From the UHGV virus genome UHGV-0130975: 35,599 nt of DNA; one strand, 5' to 3'. The notes below the pieces were generated by a model. That model was not told the origin of the DNA. It worked only from the letters and a program-made list of their open reading frames with translations, and did not search any database. This DNA is from a virus. The translations under genes were made by a program, and so were the position numbers. This document shows positions 2,733 to 33,386 of this stretch, one piece after another; position 1 is the first letter of the stretch, and each line of letters opens with the position of its first letter.

Positions 2733-3359
2733 TCAATGAATCCATTCCTCGCCGCGCAGTTTTGCCAGTATTGGCTGAGCGTTCTTTACGACAAAATTGT
2801 TGGTATCAAGATTCTTCATTTCACGAAGAAGTGATTTCTTGGTTTCTTCTGACATGTAGCGAGTCTCATATGCAATATCGTAAATCCTTCCTGAAAGCTC
2901 AGAACCAATTTGCTTCATTCCTGGGTAGATGTGTTTGCACATTTGTTGACTCTTCTCCATCCACAATTGTAAGTAGCAGAGATTAACCAGTTCTTCGTCA
3001 GTAAACTGTTTTGCAATCGGTGAGCATTCTGCCTGCCGATCCAAAATATCCAGCACCCAGCGGCGGAACTCTTTGGCTACCGGAGTGCGAGCAAACATCG
3101 CGATTAGGTGGGCACCGCGTAGTGAGAAAACTCGCACTTTTTTGCGATAATTTCCTGAGGTACTCACTTCGAGTACCTGAGTCATTCCGGCGCTAAACTC
3201 ATCGCTATACTTGTTATAAATCATTGTTACTGCACGACTATTTGCGTATTTAAGTGCAGATGCAATATTAGATGATGTAAACCAAACACCATGCATATCA
3301 CGGGTGGGCACCAACTCAACTCCGTGGAAGTTGTAATCTGATTTTGCTACAATATTCAT
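2733..3359 (-). CDS. ant: Antirepressor Ant with Bro-N domain (about 208 aa)
   Basis: Start at MNIVAKSDYNFHG (ATG 3359-3357) with AAGGA RBS. N-terminal segment NFHGVELVPTRDMHGVWFTSSNIASALKYAN is a typical Bro-N/AntA motif. Sits directly downstream of arc as in P22 immI. ORF-track start 3443 would overlap arc and lacks an RBS. Confidence 0.7.
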   Translation of the reverse strand: MNIVAKSDYNFHGVELVPTRDMHGVWFTSSNIASALKYANSRAVTMIYNKYSDEFSAGMTQVLEVSTSGNYRKKVRVFSLRGAHLIAMFARTPVAKEFRRWVLDILDRQAECSPIAKQFTDEELVNLCYLQLWMEKSQQMCKHIYPGMKQIGSELSGRIYDIAYETRYMSEETKKSLLREMKNLDTNNFVVKNAQPILAKLRGEEWIH

Positions 3360-3432
3360 GTTAGTTTCCTTGCATACGGTTACTGACATAGAGGCCCAGT
3401 TTGTGTTCGCGCACTGCTGGGCTTCACTATTT

Positions 3433-3606
3433 TTACTGGGCATTAGCTCTTTCCTCTCTCAGGCTTTTAGCCAGTCGCTGCACAATCGCAGAGTTGATAG
3501 AAATTCCATCCATTTCAGCAACACGTCTAATCTCCTCCTTCATTCGCGCTGGCAAACGAAGCTGAAAACTTTGACTTTTACGACCTGTGTAAAGCACATC
3601 TTTCAT
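3433..3606 (-). CDS. arc: Arc-like ribbon-helix-helix repressor (57 aa)
   Basis: Not in the ORF track (under 60 aa). ATG 3606-3604 preceded by a perfect AGGAGG 7 nt upstream. Translation MKDVLYTGRKSQSFQLRLPARMKEEIRRVAEMDGISINSAIVQRLAKSLREERANAQ has the RHH beta-strand/helix pattern (QLRLP...INSAIV) of P22 Arc. Confidence 0.7.
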   Translation of the reverse strand: MKDVLYTGRKSQSFQLRLPARMKEEIRRVAEMDGISINSAIVQRLAKSLREERANAQ

Positions 3607-3618
3607 AAGTAATCCTCC

Positions 3619-3675
3619 TATAATGATACCAACTTGGTTCTAGAACCAATTTAACACCATTTATTTTGATGTCAA
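3619..3675. promoter_or_regulatory. Divergent promoter/operator region between arc-ant (minus) and the 106-aa RHH gene (plus)
   Basis: Perfect 16-bp palindrome TTGGTTCTAGAACCAA at 3634-3649 with a partial repeat AAGTTGGT at 3674-3681. Plus-strand TATAAT at 3619-3624; minus-strand TTGACA (complement of 3670-3675) with a TAAATT/TTAAAT -10 candidate overlapping the palindrome. Confidence 0.55.
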
Positions 3676-3717
3676 GTTGGTGCTATTGTTTAGCGAACAT
3701 CTTTACGTTGAGGTCAT

Positions 3718-4038
3718 ATGAGCAAGTTCCCTAGTCATGAAATGGATAGGTTCAATATCAGGCTTCCTGCAGGAATGCGGGATGCTATAGCTGAACGAGC
3801 CAAACGTAACGGCAGATCAATGAACTCAGAGATTGTTCAGATACTGGAAGATGCCTTGAATGCAGAAAATACACTCGGGGAAATAGCAGATAAAATCAAC
3901 AGCGTCTCGGTTCCGCTAAATGTTGATGCGCTAGTTCAACTTCAAGCCCAGGTTATCGCCATGCAAAAAGAAATACAGGAAAAGTTCAGAGAGCAGAACG
4001 AAAAGTTGAGAGAACTGCTAAACAAAAAACCCACCTGA
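3718..4038 (+). CDS. Ribbon-helix-helix (Arc/Mnt family) repressor with C-terminal coiled coil (106 aa)
   Basis: N-terminal FNIRLPAGMRDAIAERAKRNGRSMNSEIVQILEDAL is a classic Arc/MetJ RHH signature; C-terminus is heptad-like (LVQLQAQVIAMQKEIQEKFREQNEKLRELL). Transcribed divergently from arc-ant, the position P22 mnt occupies. Confidence 0.7.
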   Translation: MSKFPSHEMDRFNIRLPAGMRDAIAERAKRNGRSMNSEIVQILEDALNAENTLGEIADKINSVSVPLNVDALVQLQAQVIAMQKEIQEKFREQNEKLRELLNKKPT

Positions 4039-4063
4039 AGGTGGGTTAATTTTTGCCTTTTTT
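4027..4063 (+). terminator. Rho-independent terminator after the 106-aa RHH gene
   Basis: Hairpin AAAACCCACC-TGAA-GGTGGGTT (4027-4047) followed by AATTTTTGCCTTTTTT. Confidence 0.7.
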
Positions 4064-4136
4064 GGACCATATTGACTACTCATAAAATGAGATCAATATT
4101 TAATCGCCCAATAACGAGTGCATGTTGAGGTATATC

Positions 4137-4316
4137 ATGGCGAAAAAACCAGGTGAAAACACAGGAAAAAACGGCGGAATATACCAAGAAGTTGGCCCGC
4201 GCGGCGGTAAGAAAGACAATTTTGCCACCGTCAAGGACAACGAAAGGCTTCCACCAACAACAAAGCCAGGTCATGGCTGGGTATTAGATAAGCGAACTCC
4301 AGACAGCAAAAAGTAA
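4137..4316 (+). CDS. Small YjzC-like protein (59 aa)
   Basis: ATG 4137 with GAGG 6 nt upstream. MAKKPGENTGKNGGIYQEVGPRGGKKDNFATVKDNERLPPTTKPGHGWVL resembles, from memory, the KPGE...NGG.Y.E.G...G...LPPT...GHxW pattern of the YjzC-like small-protein family. Own terminator immediately downstream. Confidence 0.5.
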   Translation: MAKKPGENTGKNGGIYQEVGPRGGKKDNFATVKDNERLPPTTKPGHGWVLDKRTPDSKK

Positions 4317-4321
4317 TAATC

Positions 4322-4346
4322 AAGCCGGGTCACTCCGGCTTTTTGA
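4322..4346 (+). terminator. Rho-independent terminator after the YjzC-like gene
   Basis: AGCCGG-GTCACT-CCGGCT hairpin followed by TTTTT (4341-4345). Confidence 0.6.
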
Positions 4347-4695
4347 TATGTCGCTCGCAGAACTCAACAAGCCTGCTCATTAAGTAGCAGTAAGTCTCGT
4401 TGGCTCTTCCTGGTTCAACATCAACACCGACCCTTGAGCAGATATCGAATGCCATGTGAGCGCACTCATGGGCAATAGTAGATAGTTTGCCATTGAACAC
4501 GCCTATCACATGCAAAACACCATTCTCGCTGCTCATTGTATGAGACGCTCCGTTGGCATCCGAGTCCTGCACGTCCACACCAAGTTTTTGATGCAGGCGT
4601 TGCCATTCTGGAAAGTCTCTACAAAACACAATTGTACCGCTCTCAAAGAGCGGAACGAGCATTTTTGGTACGTTTCCAATGTTAACTTTTTTCAT
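4330..4695 (-). CDS. HExxH-motif protein (121 aa), possible small zincin-like metallopeptidase-fold protein
   Basis: ORF-track frame. Contains AHECAHMAF, i.e. an HExxH motif in a predicted helix, with a downstream acidic residue (VEPGRANETY) that could serve as a third ligand. Co-directional with the late operon, in the position where P22 carries sieA. Confidence 0.55.
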   Translation of the reverse strand: MKKVNIGNVPKMLVPLFESGTIVFCRDFPEWQRLHQKLGVDVQDSDANGASHTMSSENGVLHVIGVFNGKLSTIAHECAHMAFDICSRVGVDVEPGRANETYCYLMSRLVEFCERHIKKPE

Positions 4696-4725: not shown

Positions 4726-5055
4726 GTGCTTGAATGGTTTCTGTTGGCTGCATTAGTCGTTTCTAGTTTGGTGTATGAGTATCGAATGCACTCTCTAACA
4801 AAAAAAATAGGAATTCTAGAAAACGAATATTGTGCTCTCAAATCCTCACTGGAACGTGAGCAAGGAGACTTAAAAATCTCTCTGTCTAGCATTGAGCGTT
4901 CTATAGAGAGCCTAGAGGATAAGGTTGATCGTATAAAGAATGAGGATATTCATGATATTAAGGACGACATATCCTTCTTAAAATCTTGGTTGAAAAATGT
5001 TGGTAAAATTGCCACATCAACACGAGATAAGCTCAATCCATCCATGGATGACTAA
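4726..5055 (+). CDS. Small membrane-anchored coiled-coil protein (110 aa, GTG start), low-GC moron
   Basis: GTG 4726 preceded by AAGGAGG 5 nt upstream. N-terminal hydrophobic helix (LEWFLLAALVVSSLVY) followed by a heptad-rich charged region (ILENEYCALKSSLEREQGDLKISLSSIERSIESLEDKVDRIKNEDIHDI). The ORF-track upstream extension is noncoding-looking. Visibly AT-richer than the flanking late genes; stop abuts the gp16 stop (convergent). Confidence 0.55.
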   Translation: MLEWFLLAALVVSSLVYEYRMHSLTKKIGILENEYCALKSSLEREQGDLKISLSSIERSIESLEDKVDRIKNEDIHDIKDDISFLKSWLKNVGKIATSTRDKLNPSMDD

Positions 5056-7182
5056 TTACTCCTGTGCCATTCCGCTAAGCGATGCCACAATTCCAGCCCT
5101 TGCTAAACGCTGGAACTCTTCGTTTCCTAGTGCCTCGCGTATTGCTTTTACGGCGGCCTTATTTGCCATAAATCTGCGTTCCGCCGCCGCTAATGCTTCT
5201 TTGCTTCCGCCTGCTCTTACTGCTTTAGTTGCTTCCTGAACTGCTTTCTCTATCGCATACCGACCACTACGTGTGGTGGCAATTTTAGATACAGCGCCTT
5301 TTAACCCAGCGCCAACTAAAGCACCTGCGGCAGCGCCTGCAATGCCTCCTCCAGCGCCACCAACAATGGCACCTGATGTTGAATTGGCAATTGCATTTAA
5401 CACTGTTGATGTGACGTTGGATAAACCAGCATCCAGATCGCGTAGTACATTGGCAGTTCTACCTGTTCTTTCAATATACTGCTGAGGTTTCACTGCTGCT
5501 CTTGCAAGAGTGCCATATGCATCAGCAATTCTTCCAAGCTCTGAGGAATATCGGCTAATGGCTTTTACATTTTGTGGAGTCAGTATCTCTGCGATATGGT
5601 TAATTCCTGCTGCATCAGCTTTGCCACCACGTACACCATGCGAGATAGCATCTTGCAACATTGATGAAATAGCAGGAACACGCTCTGATTCTGGCAGCGC
5701 GCGGATCATAGAATGGAATCCAGCAGGACCATTAAGACCTTTAGCTGACGATGATTGAAGGGATTTTACTCCATTCGTAATCAGTGCATCTGTTGCCAAA
5801 TCACGCCCGAAAACAGACTCTGCACTCTCTTGTGCTGATAACCTCGCTTTAGACAGATCATTAGCTTTCTGCCAGTCATCAAGAAATCCGCCGTTTTCCG
5901 CCATTGTGCGCATATCATCAGTAATTGCCCGGCGTATTTCCCCTGCTCTCCTTGCCGCATTTGCCTCTCCGCTACGCTTATATTTTTGCTCCGCATCAGC
6001 AAATTTCGCTCTCCATGCTTTCATGCCATCAAATGTTACTCCACCTTGATTGTTTGCCTGAACAAACTGTTTCATTTCAGGAGTAAGCGGTATGCCAGCA
6101 GATCGCTCTGCCTGAATAACGGCATTACCATTTAGCATTCTTGCTTTTTGATTTGGCATTGTTGACCGCACGTCATCCCATGCCGCGCGCTCGGCATCCT
6201 TCATCTGATCAAGATTTTGAAGAATCCTTTGTTTTATAGCCGCACTTTTTTCTGATGCCGTTCCAGATGTGGCCCCAAATTCATCAAGGTTTCGACTTAA
6301 CTTTGATGATATTTCGTTAAATGCTGCCTGATGGGCGTCCTGAACAATTCCAGGTGTTGATGCCAATGCGCCTTCGGCTTGTGCAATTCCACGACTTCCA
6401 GATCGCATTCCTGGTGTTAATGCGTTTATATCAATTCCAGCAGACTCAGCCGCTTTTGCTACATCTTCGGACACATTAGCGGCCTGACTGGCAATTGACT
6501 GACGCCCAGCACCTGACTTTGCCATCCTAGAAACATCATTAGCAGAATTCAGTGCTGCACCACCAAGAGCCTGTGAAACCCTTGGCGCAATAACGCGCCC
6601 GACACCTGAAAGAACGCCTTGAGCACCAATATTGATACCACCGTTAATGGCAGCATTTTGTGCAAAATCACCCTCCTGATTTGCAGCATCAGCAAGAGAA
6701 CCTGCAATCATGTTTCCTGCGGAACCGATGTCTCCTGCGAGCTTTGCTGGCGCTCCAGCAACTTTTGCCGCTGTGCCAATTGGCAGGAGATACCCACCAA
6801 TTGTTTCACCGGCTTGCGCCCAAGGGTCTGTCGGTCGATCGACAGGGCGATAAACATCATCCAAAACCTTGGGGCCACCAAGCCCCTGGCTGATTGCATT
6901 AATCAGACTTGCGCCACCCTGCAATACGTCAAATGGTATGTTTACCAGACCACGACCAGCCTGTTCTGCAATTTGCCCTGCACTTTGACCACCAGTGAGC
7001 CAATCGCCAGCTTGTTGCATCAATGATGGTTCTTCCCGTGTTGGTGCATTATTGTCCTGATTAACTGTTTGTTGCTGAACAGCCTGACCAGCAAAATACT
7101 CATCAATGGCGGTGCCAATATCTTCCGTGCTCGTACCATCAGGGAAGGTAAATGTCTTACCGTTTGCAGTTACTTTCATCAT
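5056..7182 (-). CDS. DNA ejection (injection) protein, P22 gp16-like (708 aa)
   Basis: Last gene of the late operon in the P22 order 7-20-16; Gly/Ala-rich with a C-terminal [17 protein letters not shown] hydrophobic segment typical of ejection proteins. Confidence 0.8.
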
Positions 7183-29172: not shown

Positions 29173-29466
29173 TTAAAATTCCATTTGTATTTGATCAGAA
29201 CGCTCGGTTGCCGCCGGGCGTTTTTTATTGGTGAGAATCGAAGCAACTTGTCGTGCCAATCGGGCCATGTCGTCGTCAACGACACCCCATTCAAGAACAG
29301 CAAGCAGCATTGAGAACTTTGGAATCCAGTCCCTCTTCCACCTGCTGATCTGCGACTTATCAACTCCCACAGCTTCCGCTGTTTTCTCAGTTCCAAGCAT
29401 TGCGATTTTGTTAAGCAACGCACTCTCGATTCTTAGAGCCTCGTTGCGTTTGTTTGCACGAACCAT
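29173..29466 (-). CDS. cII: Transcriptional activator CII (97 aa)
   Basis: MVRANKRNEALRIESALLNKIAMLGTEKTAEAVGVDKSQISRWKRDWIPKFSMLLAVLEWGVVDDDMARLARQVASILTNKKRPAATERSDQIQMEF recalled as near-identical to lambda CII. Confidence 0.95.
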   Translation of the reverse strand: MVRANKRNEALRIESALLNKIAMLGTEKTAEAVGVDKSQISRWKRDWIPKFSMLLAVLEWGVVDDDMARLARQVASILTNKKRPAATERSDQIQMEF

Positions 29467-29525
29467 ATGTAAGTATTTCCTTAGCAAATAAGAAGTTATG
29501 CGCATCAACTTATGCGCGTTGTATT

Positions 29526-29568
29526 CCCGCATTTCGGCGGGAATGAGGACCATGACTGTTAAAGAGCG
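29526..29568 (-). promoter_or_regulatory. nutR (boxA plus boxB hairpin)
   Basis: Minus-strand RNA CGCUCUUUAACA (boxA) followed by CCCGC-CGAAAU-GCGGG (boxB), identical to the boxB upstream of the N-like gene; lies between cro and cII. Confidence 0.75.
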
Positions 29569-29575
29569 GTGTTAC

Positions 29576-29800
29576 TTATGCTGCCTGATTCGGTTTTGGA
29601 AACAGGTGTGGCAAATCGGGGCGAATTTCGTAAGCCTTGATCTGCCCTCCAGTGGCGTTAACGATGGCGGTAACTTTCTCTGGAGAGACCAACCCGCCTT
29701 TCAGCCATTTGTGTACTGCTGGCTGCGTTACACCACACTTGTCGGCAAGGCGCTTTTGGCTACCGACAATTTTCAAGGCTCGTTGAATTACTAAATTCAT
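29576..29800 (-). CDS. cro: Cro-type repressor (74 aa)
   Basis: Start at MNLVIQ (ATG 29800) with AGAGGT 6 nt upstream; HTH (QKRLADKCGVTQPAVHKWLKG); divergent from cI across a three-operator region. Unlike lambda Cro, so a different immunity specificity. Confidence 0.8.
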   Translation of the reverse strand: MNLVIQRALKIVGSQKRLADKCGVTQPAVHKWLKGGLVSPEKVTAIVNATGGQIKAYEIRPDLPHLFPKPNQAA

Positions 29801-29826
29801 GAGCATACCTCTTGTGGTCATTACTT

Positions 29827-29911
29827 ATAACCAAAGATAACTCAAGTTATAAAAAATAGCAATAACCTTTGTTATTTTACTTTGGATAACCGTAGTTATA
29901 GATTTGTGGGT
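29827..29911. promoter_or_regulatory. OR region: three operators (ATAAC-N4-GTTAT) with divergent pR (minus) and pRM (plus)
   Basis: Palindromes GATAACtcaaGTTATA (29836-29851), AATAACctttGTTATT (29861-29876) and GATAACcgtaGTTATA (29885-29900), spaced 24-25 bp centre to centre. Minus-strand pR candidate: -35 TTGCTA (29857-29862), -10 TATCTT (29834-29839). Confidence 0.7.
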
Positions 29912-30619
29912 ATGAAAACATTCGCAGAAAGACTAAATGCAGCCATGAGCTCAGCAGGGGTATCACAATCACAGCTTGCTGACATGGTTGGAATATCTCA
30001 GCCAGCCATACAGAAGATGTCGTCCGGTAAAACAAACGGATCTCGCAAGATGGTTGAATTAGCCAATGCTTTAAAAGTGCGCCCTGAATGGCTTAGTTCT
30101 GGTATTGGTGAAATGAGGGATGGTGCACATGAAGAACCATCCAATGTCCGTGAGTCATCTTTAAAAGCTGTGGTATGGGAAGACATTAAAAGAAACGATG
30201 ACGAGTTTGTTGCGTTGCCTCTTCTTAACGTTTCGCTTTCAGCTGGAAGCGGTAGCTGCGAGCTAGAGGAATCATCGGAGTTCTCTTTGGTTTTCAGAAA
30301 GCACTATCTGAAAAAGATGGGAGTATCTGAAAGATCAGCCAAGCTAGTTAGGGTTGTAGGGCAAAGCATGGAACCAACGCTTCACGATGGCGATGTTGTT
30401 GGTGTTAACACGCAAGATACCACCATCAGAGATGGTAAAACCTACGCTATTTGCCAGTCTGATTTGTTACGAGTAAAAACATTAATCGCCACCCCTACAT
30501 CGGTGATAATCAGATCAATAAATCGCGAAGAGTACCCGGATGAAGTAATGGATAGAGATGAATTTCATGAAACCGTAAGGATTATTGGCAGAGTATTCTG
30601 GTCGTCTCATAGTTGGTAA
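29912..30619 (+). CDS. cI: CI prophage repressor (LexA-like autocleaving, 235 aa)
   Basis: N-terminal HTH (VSQSQLADMVGISQPAIQKM); C-terminal S24 peptidase domain with a likely Ala-Gly cleavage site (SLSAGSG) and Ser/Lys dyad context (VVGQSMEPTL ... KTLI). Start chosen at ATG 29912 (leaderless-like, as for lambda cI from pRM); ORF-track start 29882 lies inside OR3. Confidence 0.9.
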   Translation: MKTFAERLNAAMSSAGVSQSQLADMVGISQPAIQKMSSGKTNGSRKMVELANALKVRPEWLSSGIGEMRDGAHEEPSNVRESSLKAVVWEDIKRNDDEFVALPLLNVSLSAGSGSCELEESSEFSLVFRKHYLKKMGVSERSAKLVRVVGQSMEPTLHDGDVVGVNTQDTTIRDGKTYAICQSDLLRVKTLIATPTSVIIRSINREEYPDEVMDRDEFHETVRIIGRVFWSSHSW

Positions 30620-30659
30620 CCGATAATCAGAAGAAGACTTACGGAAGTGCGGAGGGATA

Positions 30660-30956
30660 ATGGAATTTCTGATAGTTTTTGTTGTTGTTTTGGTCATCAT
30701 TCTTTTTGTTTTGCTAAGCATTAGTAAAAAGCTATCTCAAGTGATTGAACATAGCTCTAATCGCGCAAAAGAAGAAGAGCATCTAATTGATATAAAAGAG
30801 ATTCTCTCTGATATAAAAATCACATTAGATGAAATAAAATACACAACAGATCTAATTGAACAGTATAAAATACCAACCCCAAACGAGAGAAAAGCAATAG
30901 ATCAATATCGTATTGACTTAGAAATCGACGAAATGCTAAGCAAAAGAAAAGACTAA
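30660..30956 (+). CDS. Small single-pass membrane protein with charged coiled-coil tail (98 aa); low-GC moron downstream of cI
   Basis: ATG 30660 with GGAGGG 5 nt upstream; N-terminal TM helix (FLIVFVVVLVIILFVLLSI); strongly AT-rich compared with cI; own terminator downstream. Occupies the lambda rexAB position. Confidence 0.65.
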   Translation: MEFLIVFVVVLVIILFVLLSISKKLSQVIEHSSNRAKEEEHLIDIKEILSDIKITLDEIKYTTDLIEQYKIPTPNERKAIDQYRIDLEIDEMLSKRKD

Positions 30957-30989
30957 AAACACCCGGCCTCAGCGCCGGGTTTTCTTTTC
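30957..30989 (+). terminator. Rho-independent terminator after the cI-moron operon
   Basis: ACACCCGGC-CTCAGC-GCCGGGT hairpin followed by TTTTCTTTTCC. Confidence 0.75.
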
Positions 30990-31110
30990 CTGCCGTTCAC
31001 CACCCAATCACCCATCATCATCATAGACAAGCATCAAGCCAAAGGTAACACCTTCACCCCGCACGCAAGCCCTCAAACACCAATCAATCAGCAACATTTA
31101 CAAAAATAAA

Positions 31111-31195
31111 ATACCTTTGTTATCCATCACTTATAACTTATTTACCACAAAATATAAATTAGGTTATTGACCACACCTATAACCTAAGTTATCTT
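31111..31195 (+). promoter_or_regulatory. OL/pL region: operator(s) of the same ATAAC-N4-GTTAT family and pL promoter
   Basis: TATAACctaaGTTATC palindrome (31178-31193) and weaker related sites (ATACCtttgTTATC 31111-31124; CTTATAAC 31130-31137). pL candidate: -35 TTGACC (31167-31172), -10 TATCTT (31190-31195). Architecture parallels pR. Confidence 0.6.
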
Positions 31196-31241
31196 TAAGC
31201 CATCAGCAGGACGCTGGTAGCCAAACGGAACAGATTGGCAG

Positions 31242-31281
31242 GCTCTTTAACATTGATGGGATTGTCCCGCCGAAATGCGGG
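31242..31281 (+). promoter_or_regulatory. nutL (boxA plus boxB hairpin)
   Basis: GCTCTTTAACA (31242-31252) followed by CCCGC-CGAAAT-GCGGG (31266-31281), identical to nutR boxB. Confidence 0.75.
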
Positions 31282-31640
31282 AACTGAGTTTAACCAAACA
31301 GGAGGTGCCGTAATGGTGCACTAACGCGGTTAGACCGCAGCCGAAAGGCAATGCAGCAGTAATGATGCTGCCCCGAGTCGCGTAATGGCGAGCAGGTTTA
31401 GCAGACCGATGTGAGGGTAAATAAGGGAACATGCTCCGGAAAGGCAGCGCGAATGCCAGACGCGCACCGGTTATCAGCGGCTAATAAGCGACAGAGACTC
31501 AAGGGCATGAGCGCGCTCACTGCGAGAGTGTGAGTCAAAGAGTAGTTGGCTTTGGGGTGACGTGAAGTGCAGCTGCACGACGGCAACCGGAAGATAAGCA
31601 CCCGGCGCGTCACCACCAAAGTCAATCATCGGAGGTCAAC

Positions 31641-31913
31641 ATGACAGTAGTCATTACATATCTGGCTGACGATAACGCCAGAAATCGCCGCAGAGCACGC
31701 AGGCAGGCTCAACGTGAACAGGCAATGCAAGAGCAGAGACTTGCGCGAAAAATTGCGCTAAAGATCTCTAGTTGCGTCAGAGCAGACAAAGCAGCATCAC
31801 TCGGAAGCCTTCGCTGCAAGAAGGCAGATGAATGCAGTGGAAGTATTTGCCTGCCAAACGTAGCCATTTACGCGGCAGGCTACCGGAAATCAAAACAACT
31901 GACAGCAAGATGA
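31641..31913 (+). CDS. N: N-like transcription antiterminator (90 aa; phage 21 / P22 gp24 type)
   Basis: GGAGG 5 nt upstream; arginine-rich motif (NARNRRRARRQAQREQ); C-terminal ...LPNVAIYAAGYRKSKQLTAR recalled as close to P22 gp24. Confidence 0.85.
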   Translation: MTVVITYLADDNARNRRRARRQAQREQAMQEQRLARKIALKISSCVRADKAASLGSLRCKKADECSGSICLPNVAIYAAGYRKSKQLTAR

Positions 31914-31971
31914 CTTGTGTTGGTCGCCAGAAAATGAAATTAGGCAGCAAACCACTTATTTGAGGTGAGAT

Positions 31972-32058
31972 ATGGAAGAAGAATTTGAAGAGTTCGAAGA
32001 GCATCCGCAGGATGTGATGGAACAATACCAGGACTATCCGTATGACTACGACTATTGA
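31972..32058 (+). CDS. Candidate micro-ORF: 28-aa highly acidic peptide (MEEEFEEFEEHPQDVMEQYQDYPYDYDY)
   Basis: ATG 31972 with GAGGTGAG upstream; 12 of 28 residues are Asp/Glu and there are 5 Tyr; 3' end overlaps the ral start by 17 nt in a different frame. Confidence 0.3.
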   Translation: MEEEFEEFEEHPQDVMEQYQDYPYDYDY

Positions 32059-32242
32059 TAAAAATCAATGGTGTGGACAATTCAAGCGATGCAATGGATG
32101 CAAGCTGCAATCGGAATGCATGGTTAAGCCTGAAGAAATGTTCCCTGTAATGGAGGATGGGAAATATGTCGATAAATGGGCAATACGAACGACGGCAATG
32201 ATTGCCAGAGAACTTGGTAAACAGAATAACAAGGCTGCCTGA
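32042..32242 (+). CDS. ral: Restriction alleviation protein Ral (66 aa)
   Basis: MTTTIDKNQWCGQFKRCNGCKLQSECMVKPEEMFPVMEDGKYVDKWAIRTTAMIARELGKQNNKAA recalled as lambda Ral. Confidence 0.9.
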   Translation: MTTTIDKNQWCGQFKRCNGCKLQSECMVKPEEMFPVMEDGKYVDKWAIRTTAMIARELGKQNNKAA

Positions 32243-32417
32243 TGGTGGCCTTTATTTTTGGCATAAACAACAGAATAAACACTGCGCTGTGTATTCATTC
32301 CAACGAGTGAATACACGGAGCAATGTCGCTCGTAACTAAACAGGAGCCGACTTGTTCTGATTATTGGAAATCTTCTTTGCCCTCCAGTGTGAGGGCAATT
32401 TTTTTGACGGAGGATAT

Positions 32418-33386
32418 ATGAGTGAAGTAACAGATTTAGTTGTTATTGAAAAAGCAAATGCAATGACTGTATTTCAGTCTGCCGACCAGATTGAAGAAAT
32501 CCTTCAAAAGGTTGAACGTGAAGTTATGTCCTTTGTGCCTGATATCACAACGGCAAAGGGCAGAAAGGAGATCGCTTCTCTGGCGTATAAAGTTGCGCAG
32601 ACGAAAACATATCTCGATGGTCTTGGCAAAGACCTTGTTGCTGAACTGAAGGAAATTCCAAAGCTAATTGATGCCAACCGCAAGACAGTGCGCGATCGCC
32701 TTGATGAACTGAAAGCCAAGGCGCGCCAGCCTCTTACTGATTATGAGGAGGAGCAGGCACGGATTAAAGCCGAAGAAGAAGCTAAGGCAGCAGCTGAAGC
32801 TCTCGCAAAGCAAATTGAGTCTGACCATGAAATAGCGATTTTGATGGATCGCGAATTTGACCGCCAAAGAGAAGAGGCAAGACTCAAAGCGGAGCAGGAA
32901 AAGCGAGAGCATGAAGAACGCTTAAAAAGAGAAGCTGAAGAGAAAGCCAGAGCAGAAGCCGAAGCAAAGGCAAAAGCCGAAATTGAAGCAGCAGCAAGGC
33001 GAGAAGCAGAAGCTAAGGCCGCAGCGGAACGTGCAGAGCGTGAACGCATTGAAGCCGAGCAACGAGCACAGCGCGAAGCAAAAGAGGCAGCAGAACGAGC
33101 TGAAAGAGAAAAGCAGGCAGCAATTGAAGCAGAACGCAGAAAAGCACAGGAGGAGGCTGAACGAATCCGTCGCGAGGCTGAAGCAAAAGAGCAAGCCAGA
33201 ATAGCAGAAGAAAAAAGAATCAAGGACGAAGAAGAGCGTAGAGCAAAGGATAAAGCTCACCGGAAAGAAGTAAATAACAAAATACTTGCTGACCTTATCA
33301 AGGTTGGCGCATCAGAAGATGTTGCTAAAAATATCATAACAGCCATCGTAAAAGGCGAAGTATTCGCAACAAAAATAACCTACTAA
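32418..33386 (+). CDS. Hypothetical protein with about 150-aa E/K/R/A-rich predicted single alpha-helix/coiled-coil core (322 aa)
   Basis: ATG 32418 with GGAGGA upstream; globular N-terminal about 110 aa, central EAEAKAKAEIEAAARREAEAKAAAERAERERIEAEQRAQREAKEAAERAEREKQAAIEAERRKAQEEAERIRREAEAK, globular C-terminal about 45 aa. Antisense ORFs in the track over this region are low-complexity artefacts. Confidence 0.7.
   Translation: MSEVTDLVVIEKANAMTVFQSADQIEEILQKVEREVMSFVPDITTAKGRKEIASLAYKVAQTKTYLDGLGKDLVAELKEIPKLIDANRKTVRDRLDELKAKARQPLTDYEEEQARIKAEEEAKAAAEALAKQIESDHEIAILMDREFDRQREEARLKAEQEKREHEERLKREAEEKARAEAEAKAKAEIEAAARREAEAKAAAERAERERIEAEQRAQREAKEAAERAEREKQAAIEAERRKAQEEAERIRREAEAKEQARIAEEKRIKDEEERRAKDKAHRKEVNNKILADLIKVGASEDVAKNIITAIVKGEVFATKITY

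Follow-up and report, generated by a model that had tools for sequence, protein, structure and literature searches.

In lambdoid phages, the interval between the repressor gene cI and the antiterminator gene N is described as a hotspot of mosaic diversity: rexAB of lambda maps there, as does bstA of BTP1, whose synteny with the repressor is conserved and which is highly expressed in lysogens (10.1101/2020.07.13.199331). Along with stk of phage 933W and hex of phage 434, rexAB is one of the accessory genes carried on the transcript of the repressor maintenance promoter, PRM; Stk aborts infection by HK97, and Hex lowers spontaneous induction and excludes P22 (PMC3564112). Here we scrutinized the corresponding interval in the virus genome UHGV-0130975, a stretch of 35,599 nucleotides (nt) that we refer to as the window; coordinates are positions in it unless another locus is named. 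Directly after cI, the window carries an open reading frame (ORF) of 98 amino acids (aa), hereafter ORF98. ORF98 is an uncharacterized accessory gene of a known type, that of genes in the cI-N hotspot that are transcribed together with the repressor. Judging by its position, its product may be an accessory protein expressed in lysogens that resides at the cytoplasmic face of the inner membrane and most probably protects against superinfecting phages, a reading to which we assign a probability of about 0.4.

The gene between cI and the left operators

ORF98 is a genuine gene whose protein product is under purifying selection. Relative to its Citrobacter orthologues (76-77% aa identity, synonymous divergence dS ~0.8-0.9), the ratio of nonsynonymous to synonymous substitution (dN/dS) was 0.15-0.17 overall, 0.28 in the segment encoding the transmembrane helix and 0.07-0.10 over residues 43-98. 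The GC content of ORF98, 30.3% (26.3% at third codon positions), is the lowest among all 297-nt segments of the 35.6 kb, compared with 43.4-43.8% in cI and 47.8% in the window as a whole. Frequent stop codons are expected in sequence this AT-rich, and an ORF of at least 98 aa arose in just 5 of 2000 dinucleotide-preserving shuffles of 30620-30990. A strong Shine-Dalgarno sequence precedes the start codon, and the cI stop codon (30617-30619) is separated from ORF98 by 40 nt. An earlier reading of the same DNA, the original prediction, had described a 98-aa ORF with a strong ribosome-binding site (RBS) directly after cI and AT-rich relative to it, and our data agree with this description. The elements of the immunity region are as follows.

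30660-30956, + strand: ORF98, 98 aa, ATG start, predicted bitopic membrane protein, PHROG 18389
30651-30655, + strand: Shine-Dalgarno sequence GGAGG, 4 nt 5' of the ORF98 ATG, read directly from the sequence
29912-30619, + strand: cI repressor gene, 235 aa from the ATG at 29912 (the mechanically called ORF begins with TTG at 29882; the RefSeq coding sequence has 708 nt)
30961-30990, + strand: intrinsic terminator ending the cI operon, with a G+C-rich stem of 7 bp, a loop of 6 nt and a T-run, part of the shared backbone
29576-29821, - strand: cro, divergent from cI
29821-29900: OR-like operator cluster and presumed PRM/PR region, with repeats of the ATAAC-N4-GTTAT type between cro and cI whose families are common with 31111-31196
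31111-31196, + strand: OL-like operators and PL-like promoter, TTGACC-17-TATCTT at 31167-31195
31641-31913, + strand: N antiterminator gene on the far side of the cI-N hotspot (Pfam N_peptide, expectation value (E) 2.7e-17; PHROG 271)

The resulting gene order, cro, OR, cI, ORF98, terminator, OL/PL and N, puts ORF98 between cI and the OL/PL-like cluster with N beyond, and hence in a slot like that of rexAB, as had been proposed. The repressor was recognized by Pfam Peptidase_S24 (E 1.6e-17) and HTH_3 (E 8.5e-07) and by PHROG 4, transcriptional repressor. In agreement with the original prediction, ORF98 is almost certainly co-transcribed with cI, judging from gap and terminator placement, because the gaps between the two genes are short (1-54 nt in 10 other loci described below), no terminator intervenes and one follows ORF98. 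A consensus scan of the 40-nt gap found no terminator-like site, and directly 3' of the ORF98 stop codon lies a terminator-like hairpin (30961-30980) followed by TTTTCTTTTCC. A hairpin 3' of the homologue's stop codon was kept in seven of the eight loci examined, with a T-run in six. An ORF98-specific promoter was unsupported, the sole nearby site (30585-30613, 9/12) lying in the shared end of cI and site counts not exceeding those of shuffled sequence.

Relatives of ORF98 and exchange of the slot

ORF98 matched PHROG 18389 over its full length (E 1.8e-61, residues 1-98 on profile positions 1-98 of 98), and all 17 members of the family alignment matched the same PHROG. A word-indexed search of 5.8 billion proteins returned 11 clusters, from E. 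coli and Citrobacter, and an exhaustive profile search of 1.84 billion representatives returned 14 proteins at E <=0.001, which span 94-126 aa and share the layout of ORF98. Scanning genome contigs with another alignment (A3) gave no confirmed relative, the 17-member alignment proving too diverse for use as a pattern, and P0027, a 73-aa protein adjoining a PIN-domain gene, was too marginal to be accepted as a family member. Of 5426 complete E. coli genomes, 99 contained ORF98 DNA, in every case on the chromosome and with the annotation hypothetical protein, and the exact protein was encoded on 603 contigs. The gene is frequent in prophages of O26 and other pathogenic E. coli and was also found in one Stx1a-converting phage. 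Within the phage collection it was present in a single record, LC744178, and its sole match in the plasmid collection was a 1.4-Mb record that is probably chromosomal. Querying the literature for the WP accessions of the protein, its PHROG number and a locus tag guessed in the old O26 format returned no mention of ORF98; a publication on the small RNA svsR was irrelevant.

At 11 enterobacterial lambdoid loci (the window, L034, L035, L036, L043, L048, L051, L052/53, L055, L056 and L057), a homologue was encoded between an S24-type cI, which it follows directly, and OL/PL with N. L035 represents a Yersinia frederiksenii protein, and L043 and L048 are from Citrobacter. Among the six cIs that were compared, pairwise identity was 21-67%, mostly 21-33%, and that of the small proteins was 34-96%; between the window and L043, for example, the repressors share 24% identity and the ORF98 proteins 77%. 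Every homologue, at 34-77% identity, is AT-rich, with 30-36% GC in loci of 46-49%, so that low GC is a trait of the whole family and not evidence of recent transfer.

The slot is horizontally exchanged, for which the replacement of its cargo provides direct evidence. When the window was aligned by blastn with four loci that carry alternative cargo (L037-L040), homology stopped at 30621, 2 nt past the cI stop codon, and restarted at 30961, where the terminator stem begins. These breakpoints define an exchangeable unit and assign the terminator and OL/PL to the common backbone.

30622-30960, + strand: swappable cargo cassette (RBS and ORF98), 339 bp, bounded by the cI stop codon and the terminator stem

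The original prediction had given ORF98 its own terminator; with homology resuming exactly at 30961 when the cargo is swapped, the terminator is instead assigned to the backbone of the immunity operon. Of its claim of horizontal acquisition, the exchange itself is borne out by the swapping of cargo between fixed breakpoints, and AT-richness as a sign of recent arrival is not. In the alternative-cargo loci, cI is 93-99% identical to that of the window at the nucleotide level and cro is identical in most. Their slots (3244-4616 in L037, 2452-2958 in L039, and those of L038 and L040) hold two versions of cargo, one consisting of a DUF3024 protein (PADLOC candidate PDC-S43, E 7e-42), a 177-aa unknown protein and a 44-aa ORF, and the other of a 120-aa protein and a 42-aa unknown protein. 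Since the same cI and cro occur with other cargo, ORF98 is unnecessary for immunity. Across E. coli genomes, the cI DNA of the window was found in 113, compared with 99 for ORF98. In E. coli 3CM (L041), an IS3-family element at 3358-4688 of that locus splits ORF98 at the equivalent of window position ~30770, and a remnant of 75 aa with a replaced N terminus (P0010) is annotated as a protein; with the rest of the immunity region intact, 3CM amounts to a natural knockout.

Consistent in part with a moron in the Juhala/Hendrix sense, ORF98 has a distinct composition and is present or absent between homologous backbones. A promoter and terminator of its own, which also belong to that sense, were not found, the promoter not being above chance and the terminator being shared. 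Citrobacter-type loci carry a further gene of 68-74 aa between the ORF98 homologue and OL/PL, assigned to DUF2767 in two of them, which has no counterpart in the window. Its positions in the respective loci are listed here.

L043, 4324-4530, - strand: gene of the 68-74-aa group
L048 and L056, 4324-4548, - strand: gene of the 68-74-aa group
L055, 1138-1347, - strand: gene of the 68-74-aa group
L057, 1847-2056, - strand: gene of the 68-74-aa group

Predicted membrane anchor and cytoplasmic hairpin, and candidate functions

The ORF98 protein combines one N-terminal transmembrane helix with a highly charged helical tail, as the original prediction had described.

30666-30722, + strand: transmembrane anchor, residues 3-21, predicted with the N terminus outside and the C terminus inside (N-out/C-in)
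30786-30953, + strand: conserved cytoplasmic helical hairpin, residues 43-98, delimited by family alignments, the AlphaFold2 model and a dN/dS of 0.07-0.10

Residues 3-21 (FLIVFVVVLVIILFVLLSI) have a mean Kyte-Doolittle hydropathy of 3.67, and no second hydrophobic segment was present in the protein. The helix is purely aliphatic and aromatic, containing no polar residue and neither Asp nor Glu. In all 17 family members, Lys and Arg are absent before the helix and number one to four within the 15 residues after it; ORF98 itself has none on the N-terminal side and KK plus R on the C-terminal side. Under the positive-inside rule, this asymmetry predicts that the N terminus lies outside and the tail in the cytoplasm. 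The hydrophilic tail comprises 75 residues, 42% of them charged. AlphaFold2, run with a 10-sequence alignment (mean predicted local distance difference test score 82), modeled helices at residues 2-37, 45-68 and 74-97, with a variable, low-confidence linker at 37-44 and a YKIPTP turn joining the second and third helices. The hairpin carries the motif I-K-Y-T-T-D-x-I-E-x-Y-K-L/I-P-x3-E-R-K-x-I-D-x2-R-I-D-x-E-I, in which Y69, P72, D81 and E88 are invariant among relatives as far as 26% identity. Given that the transmembrane helix is variable, lacks polar residues and is less constrained than the tail, it is best read as an anchor and the hairpin as the functional part. The evidence thus favors a cytoplasmic effector domain tethered by a membrane anchor over a channel like RexB.

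Several better-known protein types were considered and rejected. Weak matches to MotB/ZorB, MscL, PspB, the Rz spanin and p16.7 covered the transmembrane helix and the next helix only and were judged compositional. The best match of ORF98 in PADLOC-DB v2, to ZorB3 (E 0.01), was confined to these same two helices, and matches across the family were scattered, at E 2e-4 or weaker. A MotB/ZorB stator would further differ in its transmembrane acidic residue, its OmpA-like domain and its topology, ORF98 having neither of the former and the opposite predicted orientation. An Rz-like i-spanin was dismissed on the predicted N-out/C-in topology and a location in the immunity region rather than the lysis cassette, PHROG 214 being matched by one member only (E 0.014). 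For a type I toxin or a holin-like small membrane toxin, expected to be a hydrophobic peptide of <60 aa, the protein has 98 aa with a 75-residue hydrophilic tail, the gene lies outside the lysis cassette and no Rfam antisense family was detected in 29400-32100.

The ORF98 messenger RNA (mRNA) may itself form a long-range stem.

30703-30722, + strand: 5' arm of a possible long-range mRNA stem, at the end of the transmembrane-coding part, pairing with 30932-30951
30932-30951, + strand: 3' arm of the possible stem, in the last codons of ORF98

The arms pair over 20 positions with 2 mismatches. Across seven sequences, reaching down to 49% protein identity, 81% of alignment cells were paired, compared with 39-57% when the partner was slid, and five pairs were changed on both sides in Citrobacter and other relatives. 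RNAalifold predicted the stem independently; the minimum-free-energy fold of the single sequence chooses another partner. Pairing of this kind is favored by composition, the transmembrane codons being U-rich and the tail codons A-rich, and this bias, together with the number of sequences, just seven, limits the claim.

An exclusion or abortive-infection role is plausible for ORF98 by its position only. As an accessory gene of the immunity operon, dispensable to the prophage and exchanged horizontally, ORF98 would be transcribed with cI, presumably from PRM, and its transcript would end at the terminator just before OL/PL. Such co-transcription would mean that the protein is made continuously in lysogens. 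The very hydrophobic N-terminal helix would act as an anchor only, with the N terminus outside, and the charged, coiled-coil-like hairpin (residues 43-98) on the cytoplasmic face would be the working part, which would bind a protein of phage or host origin at the inner face of the membrane. This binding could block genome entry or early development of the incoming phage, or could trigger abortive infection; ion-channel activity by ORF98 itself appears unlikely.

Several observations weigh against a protective function. Inference from position is weak, as illustrated by Hex of phage 434, which occupies the same slot and has a non-defence effect in lowering spontaneous induction, and the tight coupling to cI, nearly overlapping in L036, where the gap is 1 nt, could instead mean that ORF98 acts in connection with the repressor. 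The most distant homologues, three non-phage ones (L042, L045 and L054), have no adjoining repressor: L042 is from Pelagicoccus, L045 has a SHOCT-domain protein and an IS200 transposase as neighbors, and L054 lies on an island with an integrase fragment. No defence matches were found among the neighbors of these three. No model of known function matched ORF98 in Pfam, NCBIfam, PADLOC or PHROGs, NCBIfam and PADLOC having been searched with all 17 family members and not only the window protein, and the same four collections gave no match to known abortive-infection, superinfection-exclusion (Sie) or defence proteins. Foldseek against the PDB and BFVD returned 0 matches and thus no fold relatives.

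More ambitiously, ORF98 might found a new family of repressor-coupled, membrane-tethered proteins acting in anti-phage defence or lysogeny control, in which the cytoplasmic YKLP hairpin would recognize a phage or host protein and the gene would have hopped between unrelated cI modules, always landing just after the repressor, with expression perhaps tuned by the long-range mRNA stem. We hold this wider proposal tentatively and consider it doubtful as a whole.

The tethered hairpin could instead tune prophage stability in the manner of Hex, possibly via RecA, FtsH/HflKC or the repressor. Synteny with cI is kept across very different repressor families, with gaps down to 1 nt, and Hex provides the precedent of an induction regulator co-transcribed from PRM (PMC3564112). 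However, the same cI and cro work with other cargo or with an IS-disrupted copy, hence ORF98 is not needed for immunity, and any partners would have to be generic, the compared cIs being mostly 21-33% identical. With no similarity to Hex or cIII in addition, we regard a modulator of lysogeny or induction as unlikely.

Also unlikely is a lysogenic-conversion or host-fitness factor that alters envelope physiology, the stress response or colonization and has no anti-phage role. Enterobacterial family members are confined to the phage immunity slot and no partner genes accompany them. The layout recalls small envelope-stress proteins of the PspB type and one member weakly matched TIGR02976 (E 0.026), but such matches fall far below family cut-offs; the frequency of ORF98 in prophages of O26 and other pathogenic E. 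coli speaks for this explanation.

Occupancy of the Rex slot also raises the question of direct membrane damage, whereby a single-pass protein would oligomerize and, when triggered, depolarize or permeabilize the membrane in the manner of RexB, a holin or a type I toxin. Besides its single transmembrane helix, the protein has coiled-coil-like helices that could drive oligomerization, and the sequence-profile search of the PDB matched designed coiled coils only. Arguing against this, the helix has no polar or charged residue to line a pore and is the less conserved part of the protein (dN/dS 0.28 vs 0.07-0.10), neither a RexA-like sensor partner nor an antisense RNA or antitoxin accompanies the gene, and expression with cI, which would be constitutive, speaks against intrinsic toxicity. 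We consider a membrane-damaging effector improbable. A chance frame or decaying remnant in a region acting as RNA or spacer, for which the possible conserved mRNA stem and the universal annotation as a hypothetical protein might be cited, is scarcely credible given a dN/dS of 0.07-0.17 at dS ~0.8-0.9, a length conserved at 94-126 aa, a motif persisting to 26% identity, a strong ribosome-binding site and the shuffle test (5/2000).

Protection against superinfecting phages from the cytoplasmic face of the membrane is the reading we prefer. Few prophage genes are made in every lysogenic cell, and those that share a transcript with the repressor are among them; rexAB, stk, bstA and hex are examples with defence or switch-tuning functions and unusual mechanisms. 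As a compact family with a sharply defined domain and natural cargo-swap controls in prophages that are otherwise mosaic, ORF98 and its relatives lend themselves to an inexpensive and clear-cut search for a new membrane-proximal mechanism; if no anti-phage effect were to emerge, the case would caution against assigning defence functions by position only.

Other elements of the window and comparison with described systems

Beyond PL, a putative nutL-like site at 31242-31282 (+ strand) was recognized by eye from the known boxA consensus, with a boxA-like GCTCTTTAACA at 31242-31252 followed by the hairpin TCCCGC-CGAAAT-GCGGGA at 31265-31282. Directly after this site and before N, the PL-N leader contains a conserved GC-rich element of ~250 nt (31289-31539, + strand), whose 5' end includes AGGAGG at 31300-31305 and a mini-ORF of three codons (31313-31324) starting with the ATG at 31313. 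The O26 version of the region lacks the element, which was found in 62 E. coli genomes, in mEp213 and Stx2c phages, and in Hafnia yong1, Klebsiella RothC/D and Providencia PSTCR7lys, and its 19-nt core occurred on at least 119 IMG/VR contigs; placement varies among phages, the element lying in different transcribed leaders, after PL, after Q or in the late region. Six diverse copies support a structure of 50 pairs in which 92.6% of positions were paired, compared with 26-41% in slid controls; changes on both sides were seen for 10 pairs, a result reached by none of 500 shuffles. Rfam 15 gave no match to the element at E <=10 and no family anywhere in 29400-32100. We regard 31289-31539 as a candidate new phage leader RNA, which may be more novel than ORF98 within this neighborhood. 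Further along the PL operon, 32364-33386 (+ strand) encodes a 340-aa ORF with a very long, repetitive helical segment rich in Glu, Ala, Lys and Arg (EAKAKAEAEAKAAAERAERE...).

At the other end of the window, a protein encoded at 4726-5055 had been said to mirror the architecture of ORF98. Its gene (+ strand) starts with GTG, has AAGGAGG as ribosome-binding site and is convergent with a tailspike-sized ORF of 708 aa (5056-7182); in the product, which has no family match, a short hydrophobic helix at the N terminus is followed by a coiled-coil-like tail. The analogy holds at the level of layout, both proteins having a transmembrane helix and a helical tail, and fails as kinship, homology being rejected on a BLASTP E of 8.5 and an hhalign probability of 2.3%. 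That the two are analogous effectors is speculation.

Among described proteins with an N-terminal transmembrane helix and a cytoplasmic coiled coil or helical domain in ~75-130 aa, PspB and p16.7 of phi29 are like ORF98 in layout. The PspB model TIGR02976 was matched below cut-off by one member (E 0.026), and the context here is a phage immunity operon, not pspABC; p16.7 (PHROG 6682) was matched by two members at sub-threshold values (E 0.026-0.11). Small Sie proteins, including SieA and SieB of P22, gp15 of HK97, Imm and Sp of T4 and lactococcal Sie2009, resemble ORF98 in being phage or prophage proteins of the inner membrane, and their action there on incoming phage is the one proposed for ORF98 (in part PMC10883804). 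They differ from it in genome position and topology and have no sequence relationship with it by PHROG, Pfam or PADLOC.

Closer parallels come from the repressor operon itself. Like rexA-rexB of lambda, ORF98 occupies the slot between cI and OL/PL, is presumably co-expressed with the repressor, is followed by a terminator before OL and encodes a membrane protein. Unlike ORF98, which is one gene with one transmembrane anchor, Rex consists of two genes, for a cytoplasmic sensor (RexA) and a polytopic membrane protein (RexB), and no Rex model was among the Pfam, PHROG, PADLOC and NCBIfam matches of ORF98. BstA of Salmonella BTP1 is likewise encoded directly 3' of cI, syntenic with the repressor across diverse prophages and followed by a Rho-independent terminator (10.1101/2020.07.13.199331); in contrast to ORF98, it is much larger, soluble and associated with DNA and has a cognate DNA element for self-immunity, aba, no counterpart of which was identified for ORF98, and the two share no homology. 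Stk of 933W and Hex of 434 are the products of single accessory genes that lysogeny does not require and that share the PRM transcript with cI (PMC3564112), as is proposed for ORF98, although neither Stk, a kinase, nor Hex, a soluble protein of 158 aa, is membrane-anchored or homologous to ORF98. PDC-S43 (DUF3024) is an unrelated soluble protein of 113 aa and itself only a candidate defence gene, yet it takes exactly the same cassette position as ORF98, between the same cI stop codon and terminator, in sister prophages.

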